Source: a virus. Taken from it: a DNA stretch of 22,737 bases. Positions 4,738 to 5,338 of the stretch are shown piece after piece. The notes under the pieces were generated by a model that saw only the letters and a program-made list of their open reading frames with translations, had not been told where the DNA came from and made no database searches. The DNA is taken from the IMG/VR virus record IMGVR_UViG_3300024433_002526. One strand, written 5' to 3'. How positions within the stretch are numbered: position 1 is the stretch's first letter; each line of letters starts with the position of its first letter. A program made the position numbers and the translations under genes.

Positions 4738-5040
4738 CTAGAAATCCATCACTAAGAAGGTGAGCCCGTAGGACGCGTCCTGGGCCTCGAAATCCCACCC
4801 ACCGTAGATTCCGACCTTGATCTCGTACAAACTCGTCACACGCCACGACAAGCCAACGGCGGCCAGGTCCTCGGCCAGGATCAGATCACCAGCGAAGCGC
4901 TTCACGTCCCACAGCTCAATGCCGAGCAGGACACTGACACGCTCCTTGGAGACCACGAACCCCGTCGAGACATCAGGAAATTCGTATGTCGCCTCGACAT
5001 CGTTCGAGCAGGACGAGAAGCTTACCAAGGCCAGGAGCAA
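4738..5040 (-). CDS. Putative small secreted lipoprotein / outer-membrane-targeted beta-rich protein (start unresolved)
   Basis: High G/C third-position bias in this frame only from about 5045 downward. It encodes '..LTLLLALVSFSSC|SNDVEATYEF...' (hydrophobic stretch plus a lipobox-like SFSSC) and ends '...YGLTFLVMDF', an OMP-like C-terminal aromatic. The only in-frame start candidate is TTG 5040, which leaves an abnormally short signal peptide (see finding). Confidence 0.4.
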   Translation of the reverse strand: MLLALVSFSSCSNDVEATYEFPDVSTGFVVSKERVSVLLGIELWDVKRFAGDLILAEDLAAVGLSWRVTSLYEIKVGIYGGWDFEAQDASYGLTFLVMDF

Positions 5041-5338
5041 CGTTAGTACGCTTGCCCAAGAAGATGTTCTGCATGCGCTTCCACACCTCTTGGCATCTCG
5101 CAAGGGACCACCCCGCCTTCTTCGATTGATACGCCCTGAAGACCCTGTAGAAACGGAAGAGCAGTTTGCAGACCCGCTCCTTGTCGTACTTCTCGGTGTC
5201 GATCCAGCGGAGGACCTCCGGCACCAACTGACGGTCGACGACCTCCGCGTGCTTGGCCAACAGCTTGTCGAGCTGGCTACGCTCCGACTGAAGCAGCGAT
5301 GGGAGCACGATCTGAAGAGCACCGTGCTCCCGGAGCAC
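4973..5338 (-). CDS. Hypothetical protein (121 aa as tracked; the last ~25 codons look non-coding by codon bias)
   Basis: GTG 5338 lies 20 nt after the holin-like stop. Coding character is good to about residue 100 ('...ARCQEVWKRMQNIFLGKRTNV'). After that, third-position G/C drops and coding signal moves to the +1 frame. Confidence 0.55.
   Translation of the reverse strand: MLREHGALQIVLPSLLQSERSQLDKLLAKHAEVVDRQLVPEVLRWIDTEKYDKERVCKLLFRFYRVFRAYQSKKAGWSLARCQEVWKRMQNIFLGKRTNVAPGLGKLLVLLERCRGDIRIS

Follow-up and report, generated by a model that had tools for sequence, protein, structure and literature searches.

An overlooked TTG start probably accounts for a predicted lipoprotein gene that overlaps a conserved partner gene in uncultured phages

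The 22,737-nt stretch of viral DNA held as IMG/VR record IMGVR_UViG_3300024433_002526 (the window, whose positions serve as coordinates throughout) carries two overlapping genes, here called A and B, and next to them a gene for a 138-aa holin-like protein, all three on the minus strand. Gene A occupies 4973..5338 (-) in the open reading frame (ORF) listing and encodes 121 aa when counted from GTG 5338. An open +1 frame, taken from the same listing and from reading of the sequence, extends over 4738..5322 (-). Both ORFs are as they had been given in a preliminary description of the window. Within the open +1 frame we place gene B at 4738..5103 (-), where translation from a TTG start (5103..5101) to a stop at 4740..4738 yields a 121-aa predicted lipoprotein precursor. 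The A/B overlap spans 4973..5103 (-), a length of 131 nt, with B in the +1 frame relative to A. From these sequences we judge it probable that A and B are two separate overlapping cistrons, with B beginning at TTG 5103 behind the Shine-Dalgarno (SD)-like run AAGGCGGGGTGG. With this overlooked TTG within the end of gene A as the start of B, neither a frame shift nor a sequencing error is needed to explain the locus.

The preliminary description had drawn attention to a shift of the coding signal from the 121-aa frame into the +1 frame. With a window G+C content of 59%, the G+C content of third codon positions (GC3) is usable as a coding measure, and a GC3 profile computed in 20-codon sliding windows along the minus strand bears this shift out. 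GC3 in the A frame is 0.80–0.95 from ~5310 to 5115 and is down to 0.40 by 5055, while in the +1 (B) frame it is 0.40–0.50 from 5205 to 5085 and 0.75–0.85 from 5055 to ~4800. The high third-position G+C passes from the A frame to the +1 frame near 5070–5050 and stays there until the stop at 4738. This apparent jump would arise because codon bias tracks A over the n-region of the B signal peptide and then tracks B once the functional part of A has ended. Specifically, from 5103 to ~5060 gene B would encode the signal-peptide n-region alone, which would be almost unconstrained, and codon bias there would follow the last conserved helix of A; 3' of '...NIF', A would have no function left, and the h-region and mature domain of B would set codon usage. 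A hypervariable patch of 42 nt at 5018..5059 (-) marks the place where the B n-region passes into the h-region and where the tail of A begins. Over 769 aligned nt the window differs from contigs L005/L006 at 31 positions, 25 of which fall inside 5059..5018, and the differences within the patch include in-frame codon indels that leave both frames open. Local recombination or relaxed constraint could be the cause.

The +1 frame had been described as lacking ATG and GTG, with TTG 5040 as its sole candidate start. This is wrong, as the start-type codons of the B frame comprise TTG 5103, TTG 5040, TTG 5028, and a far-upstream GTG 5322. The proposed start, TTG 5103 (5101..5103, (-)), lies in frame 21 codons upstream of TTG 5040 and two codons past the conserved Trp of A in '...SK[KR]xGW'. 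The purine run AAGGCGGGGTGG (5108..5119, (-)) ends 4 nt 5' of this TTG and also codes for part of ...K-A-G-W in frame A. The predicted duplex with the 3' tail of 16S rRNA has an energy of -7.9 kcal/mol for TTG 5103, which is among the stronger values in the window, compared with -2.4 kcal/mol for TTG 5040, -10.9 kcal/mol for the portal gene, and -2.6 kcal/mol for the GTG of A.

Conservation points to the same codon. A start-type codon stands in one fixed aligned column in 7/7 related lineages, being ATG in L012/L016/L017, L018, and L021, GTG in L010/L011/L015 and L019, and TTG in the window, L001-L006, and L007. Each copy in the relatives is preceded by an SD-like run, with energies of -6.1 to -12.2 kcal/mol. 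The frame-A codon that spans the B start varies between CTT (Leu), GAT (Asp), AAT (Asn), and CGT (Arg), with the T-then-G always kept. T occupies 1–8 of 30 third positions in neighboring A codons, yet it is kept at the B-start codon in all 7 lineages. Furthermore, in L005, L012, L019, and L021 no other start codon comes between the upstream stop of the B frame and the aligned codon. Public records give B lengths of 72, 95, 96, 102, or 145 aa, none of which is counted from the conserved start.

Relatives of the locus were collected in three ways. A protein search with a joined A+B query returned A-type clusters only (P0001-P0003; contigs L001-L007), scans with the B alignment yielded L008-L020, and an exhaustive HMMER search with B added P0004 at 70% identity (contigs L021-L024). 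The lineages derive from separate JGI, IMG/VR, ENA, and Logan assemblies. Every lineage more than ~60% identical in B keeps A followed by an overlapping B in the +1 frame, and the two-frame layout of the window recurs in at least seven diverged lineages from independent assemblies, the overlaps measuring 86–131 nt in close lineages. Separated layouts also occur. In L013/L020 (53% identity; 145-kb contig), A ends ...FKGG-TGA and the ATG of B follows one base later, with AGGGGGGA as the SD and MRGIILGTMVLILLGC at the B start. In L025 (33% G+C), a 90-aa A is separated by a 6-nt gap from a B that starts with ATG, and in L028 the gap is 32 nt, again with an ATG start. Overlapped relatives with ATG starts are represented by L026 (98-nt overlap, +1 frame; B start MLASKTRAKSSAKKSGWLRSLICLSCLLILLSSGC) and L031 (29-nt overlap of an A-like gene, +1 frame), and the B protein of L026 has a long basic n-region, MLASKTRAKSSAKKSGWLRS, like that of the window. 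The pairs of L025, L026, and L028 are far more distant copies, found beside B homologues derived from the HMMER search.

Taken together, the separated (L013/L020, L025, L028) and overlapped (L026, L031) relatives with ATG starts argue for two cistrons with a moving boundary. As read from these alignments, the A/B boundary shifts between separated and overlapped states across the family. The order holin-like protein, A, B is found in the window clade, L013, L021, L025, L026, and L028, while L031 has the A-B pair without a holin-like gene, and L027 and L029 have B without A. The A-like ORF of L026 (1570..1854, (+); 94 aa, TTG start), which overlaps the B homologue P0015 by 98 nt, is uncalled in the source annotation.

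When B is read from TTG 5103, a signal peptide, MRDAKRCGSACRTSSWASVLTLLLALVSFSS, runs in a single frame up to a Cys that opens the sequence CSND.... The predicted signal peptide covers residues 1–31 (5011..5103, (-)), with n-region MRDAKRCGSACRTSSWAS, h-region VLTLLLALV, and a lipobox-like SFSS before Cys32, and the AlphaFold2 model places a helix at residues 15–29. The TGC codon of Cys32 (5008..5010, (-)) specifies the predicted lipidated first residue of mature B, the residue at +2 being Ser, and all close lineages retain a Cys immediately ahead of [SAP]-x-D...TYEFPD. The lipoprotein rule of the PROSITE PS51257 type combines the lipobox {DERK}(6)-[LIVMFWSTAG](2)-[LIVMFYSTAGCQ]-[AGS]-C with a Cys at residue 15–35 and at least one Lys or Arg in the first 7 residues. 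B from TTG 5103 fits this rule through its lipobox, Cys32, and R2/K5/R6, and the strict lipobox pattern is also matched by L005, L012, L013, P0015, and P0028. The earlier proposal of a peptide joined across the frames, 'MQNIFLGKRTNV-LTLLL...', counts some bases twice and is unneeded, since reading the B frame by itself from TTG 5103 already yields a complete signal peptide. In this arrangement, the long and basic n-region of B would be encoded across the last conserved helix of A, and its h-region and lipobox across the unconserved tail of A. The B precursor would then be exported by Sec and lipidated at Cys32 by Lgt/LspA/Lnt, and the Ser at residue +2 suggests that it would be sorted to the outer membrane.

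Several observations weigh against this assignment. TTG is a weak initiator, and the expression of B is predicted from sequence; for the host, the use of an SD and the Lol sorting rule are assumptions. L010, L018, L019, and L021 fail the strict lipobox expression owing to extra Cys residues near the lipobox. As the stretch is rich in purines, base composition could account for part of the positive charge encoded in its +1 frame. The changed fraction of synonymous sites in A is 0.49 in the n-region overlap and 0.53 upstream, so there is no extra constraint and no independent signal of selection for translation of the n-region, although similar synonymous change inside the overlap is consistent with an n-region that has almost no sequence requirement. 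Finally, a second start-type codon (TTG or GTG) stands at the h-region start in most lineages and may be used too or instead, and Prodigal-type gene callers picked this h-region start for P0004.

This last point bears on the alternative that survives best, in which B is a separate overlapping gene that starts at TTG 5040 (or TTG 5028) and carries a short, uncharged signal peptide, MLLALVSFSS before the Cys. Besides the choice made by gene callers in P0004, and their use in L004 of the neighboring TTG that corresponds to 5028 of the window, five lineages keep TTT-G at this position and not the TTC-G expected from GC3 bias. This conserved TTG is also explicable by the Leu required in the h-region of B. 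The proximal start-type codon is not fixed: it is shifted in the window, is GTG in L005, and lies further 3' in L007. In addition to its poor SD-like pairing (-2.4 kcal/mol only), the 100-aa TTG 5040 product would have Cys11 and no Lys or Arg, failing both the position and the charge rules for lipoproteins, and distant relatives with an unambiguous ATG all have full-length n-regions. We consider it unlikely that B starts here, and TTG 5040 may be a minor start beside TTG 5103.

The homologues of A fall in P0001-P0003 and P0032-P0041. Alignment places the end of the conserved core of A near '...MQNIF', and the separated-layout relatives stop within a few residues of '...F'. Beyond this point, unconserved tails of 11–28 residues are found in overlapped lineages only, the tail of the window copy being ~21 residues long. 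The AlphaFold2 model of A is all-helical at low confidence, with an overall predicted local distance difference test (pLDDT) score of 56, which is insufficient for fold comparison, and values <50 for residues 96–121. By the usual threshold, a transmembrane (TM) segment calls for a Kyte-Doolittle hydropathy, KD(19), of 1.6; the maximum for A is 0.98 in the window and 0.76–1.38 across five lineages, all below the threshold. On this basis A is predicted to be a soluble, all-helical protein without a TM segment. Searches of A against Pfam, PHROGs, NCBIfam, and PADLOC gave no informative match.

The 5' end of A deserves separate mention. In L012/L018, the start codon of A is an ATG sharing bases with the stop codon of the holin-like gene (AAAATGA). 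A CTG occupies the position of this ATG in the window, L001-L007, L010, and L021, and in the window the sequence reads CTGA, with the CTG at 5362..5360 and the stop at 5361..5359. GTG 5338, the first canonical start of A, lies 8 codons 3' of CTG 5362, and the intervening residues align with the N-terminus of the relatives. A may begin at CTG 5362, by CTG initiation or by termination-reinitiation coupling.

The mature domain of B (4741..5007, (-); ~89 aa) is predicted to form a six-stranded antiparallel up-and-down beta-barrel and ends ...LVMDF. Its homologues comprise P0004-P0031 and P0042-P0048. The exhaustive HMMER search gave 28 representatives at E<=1e-3, and a word-indexed profile search gave 11 clusters, all metagenomic and, where named, called 'hypothetical protein'. 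Family members begin with a signal peptide, of either the lipoprotein or the ordinary kind, and continue through a variable linker into a conserved ~85-aa domain; this domain shows the motifs TYxFPDxSxGF, ELxD, and RxTSIxEI and has [hydrophobic]-[K/D/E]-F at its C-terminus. The preliminary description was right about the beta-rich mature part and the final ...VMDF, and the terminal aromatic residue is kept in 24/26 aligned members (F in 23, W in one). Against Pfam, NCBIfam, PADLOC, and PHROGs, B returned nothing informative, its sole match being a weak one to phrog_19627, a family of unassigned function.

With the family alignment as input, AlphaFold2 modeled B at a pLDDT of 87, with values >90 across the six antiparallel strands. 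A Foldseek search of this model against the BFVD viral models found nothing significant. The model of mature B superposes on BBn6 (Protein Data Bank (PDB) 9XZT), a six-stranded up-and-down barrel. The designers of BBn6 report that neither the PDB nor the AlphaFold database contains this topology and that six metagenomic models were all they found (PMC12478100). Because the model is a monomeric closed barrel and matches a soluble design, we favor a soluble, lipid-anchored barrel for B, and the B family may be a natural example of the BBn6-type barrel.

The holin-like gene upstream of A (5359..5775, (-)) is the first member of the recurrent triad and encodes 138 aa with a single N-terminal TM segment, KD(19) reaching 2.29 at residues 12–30. 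Its match to Pfam Holin_LLH PF09682 (E 1.8e-3, 19.1 bits) lies below the gathering (GA) score of 24.9, and its TIGR01673 score is 15 vs a curated cut-off of 34.75. Three PHROG holin families were matched at E ~1e-3, and the orthologue in L021-L024 has an unmarked precomputed PF09682 match. The preliminary observation that a holin-like gene lies upstream and that no recognizable endolysin or spanin accompanies it holds for the window ORFs scanned: no endolysin or spanin was matched among them with Pfam and PHROGs, the scan reaching up to the last three large ORFs (18433-22698).

Such surroundings raise the question of a two-component spanin, in which B would be the o-spanin and either the 138-aa single-TM protein or A the i-spanin. 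We hold this to be improbable. The resemblance is one of gene layout: B carries a lipoprotein signal, the layout is overlapped in the +1 frame by 86–131 nt, a holin-like gene is adjacent, and the family has both overlapped and separated members, with the tail of the upstream partner diverging over the overlap as in spanins (PMC6139136). B is, as in two-component spanins, a lipoprotein-type gene that overlaps its partner in the +1 frame, but A does not supply the type II TM partner, since it lacks a TM segment in any lineage tested (KD(19) <1.6). The 138-aa protein was rejected as i-spanin, as its acidic N-terminus and the K-rich sequence after the TM segment would by the positive-inside rule give an N-out/C-in topology, opposite to that of an i-spanin, and gene A separates its gene from B. 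Moreover, searches of PHROGs, Pfam, and NCBIfam gave no spanin family for either protein, the prediction for mature B is a well-folded 89-aa beta-barrel in place of a short proline-rich or beta-alpha-beta o-spanin, and the signal peptides of some B homologues are of the ordinary, non-lipoprotein type. The earlier suggestion of a spanin-like lipoprotein is therefore retained for the gene layout and given up for the proteins, in view of the missing TM segment of A, the missing spanin-family match, and a predicted fold of B unlike known o-spanins. Likewise, the related suggestion of an Rz/Rz1-style overlapped gene with a weak start was right as to a separate +1-frame cistron inside the 3' end of A; its start is most likely TTG 5103 and not TTG 5040, and A, without a TM segment, is no i-spanin.

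A programmed +1 (or -2) frameshift near 5045 would join A, or a short ORF from ATG 5071 ('MQN...'), to B, and would produce a bitopic fusion or a frameshift-dependent signal peptide. Basic frame-A residues, GKRTN, adjoin the B h-region in the window, and similar joins can be drawn in L005, L007, L010, and L012. However, no shift-prone motif is conserved, the junction reading ACT AAC GTT in the window vs ACN TTT GGN in others, and nowhere is the locus more variable than at the junction. The B frame supplies its own start, together with an SD and an n-region. L012, L018, and L021 lack the 'MQN' ATG, and we rejected internal initiation at this ATG followed by a frameshift, as the ATG is not conserved. 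The frameshift reading was tested by asking for homologues with a clean separate start. Such homologues exist: in L013/L020, L025, and L028, A stops before the own ATG of B, so a fusion is no feature of the family. With relatives that have separated genes and no conserved slippery site, the bitopic A-B protein and the programmed frameshift put forward in the preliminary description are unsupported, and we regard them as very unlikely. An assembly or sequencing indel that split a single gene, for which the frame change itself speaks and nothing further, is excluded for all practical purposes by the comparison of orthologous loci, because the two-frame layout occurs in at least seven diverged lineages and is common to the window, L001-L012, and L014-L024, from separate samples and assemblers and diverged to ~62–70% identity in B, and because the A core and B domain are separate genes in distant relatives.

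With two separate overlapping cistrons as our preferred reading, the locus can be classed among overlapping phage genes with a non-ATG start, an architecture of known kind that was misassigned both in the preliminary description and by automatic callers. Exported phage proteins like B would be recognizable only with correct start assignment. As far as sequence comparison goes, A and B are conserved as a pair across phages, often behind a holin-like gene, and have so far gone unannotated. The pair is found in uncultured phages of ~150 kb, with contigs of about that size in IMGVR_UViG_3300033153_004214 and ENA ERZ25073474 NODE_16; its layout appears to evolve like that of spanin genes, while its proteins are not spanin-like. 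The confident model of B has a beta-barrel topology of which, it has been claimed, nature offers almost no examples.

The recurrent order of holin-like protein, A, and B points to an envelope-directed module. B would act in the cell envelope as a small six-stranded barrel, together with A and the upstream holin-like protein. Our best guess from gene context for the role of the pair is a lysis-associated or lysis-timing function, with superinfection exclusion as the alternative. A bolder proposal, which we put forward tentatively and consider unlikely, is that A and B, often after the holin-like protein, constitute a conserved and hitherto undescribed envelope module of large T4-like environmental phages. 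B would in that case be a natural six-stranded up-and-down barrel, and the conserved ...[hydrophobic]-[K/D/E]-F at its C-terminus would genuinely serve in outer-membrane targeting or assembly. The module would then either affect the outer membrane during lysis or keep superinfecting phages out, and would do so in a way unrelated to that of spanins.

Gene content indicates that the window is part of a large T4-like phage. Upstream of the triad, Pfam matches identify an HU-like protein (5787..6266) and a T4-type portal (6256..8115). A 1005-aa protein (8119..11136, (-)) matches PHROGs of the large terminase subunit over residues ~135-406. Its residues 360-405 match Pfam LAGLIDADG_3, and this segment inside the terminase match suggests an intein or homing-endonuclease insertion. 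Elsewhere in the window, Pfam matches include SbcC/SbcD-like proteins, a 5'-3' exonuclease, a RecA/UvsX-like protein, and a small protein resembling the NrdD C-terminus. Comparison of the region 3900-8200 with INPHARED phages by blastn gave no DNA match, and the B alignment, run against GTDB genome contigs, turned up no relative and so no prophage or host clue.

A PDDEXK_15 nuclease gene assigned by Pfam (3948..4703, (-)) follows B. The nuclease is 251 aa long in both the window and L006, against 227 aa as annotated in L001, and a cluster of differences between the window and L001-L004 at 4662..4705 (-) coincides with the start of its gene. The end of this gene is overlapped by a small ORF (3551..4084, (-)) whose match to the NrdD profile is confined to the glycyl-radical region at the C-terminal end (the last ~30 positions), at E 7.5e-6 and marginally under the gathering score; its product may be a free-standing glycyl-radical 'spare part' comparable to GrcA/YfiD. 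At 5935..6366 (+) of L001, an orthologous contig, an 895-aa gene downstream of the A/B locus has a Pfam match to MVP_shoulder (major vault protein), and its counterpart in the window is expected below ~2650 (-).

Among known barrels, BBn6 (PDB 9XZT; PMC12478100) was designed de novo and is unrelated to B in sequence (7–10% identity), and the structure of B is predicted. Mycobacterial LpqH and the C-terminal barrels of Neisseria NHBA, fHbp, and HpuA have at least 8 strands or another topology, unlike B; the likeness of B to them is one of general architecture alone, with no sequence similarity detected. Among known gene pairs, lambda Rz/Rz1 likewise has a lipoprotein encoded in the +1 frame of another phage gene. 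Rz1, however, is wholly embedded in Rz, whereas B overlaps the last 131 nt of A, and Rz is a type II membrane protein, which A is not.

The closest parallel is with the overlapped spanin genes. Kongari et al. (2018) described overlapped o-spanin genes in the +1 frame with overlaps of 70–155 bp, spanin families that mix overlapped and separated members and in which the C-terminus of the upstream protein diverges over the overlap, and gene callers that systematically mis-annotate spanin genes (PMC6139136). In overlapped pairs such as P2 lysB/lysC and those of T5, Jersey, and DFL12phi1 (PMC6139136), as in A/B, the start and signal of the lipoprotein lie in the +1 frame within the 3' end of the upstream gene. 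The overlaps are comparable (70–155 bp vs 86–131 nt), and both families mix overlapped and separated members. The upstream C-terminus diverges, callers miss or truncate the lipoprotein gene, and a holin-like gene is adjacent in both. The differences from these spanins are that A, predicted to be soluble, has no N-terminal TM segment, that the fold predicted for mature B is a compact six-stranded barrel of ~89 aa and of no known o-spanin type, that neither protein is homologous to a spanin family in PHROGs or Pfam, and that no endolysin was matched nearby among the ORFs scanned. By this comparison of sequences, A and B share with the spanins an architecture for expressing an overlapped lipoprotein gene and are a pair of a different kind.

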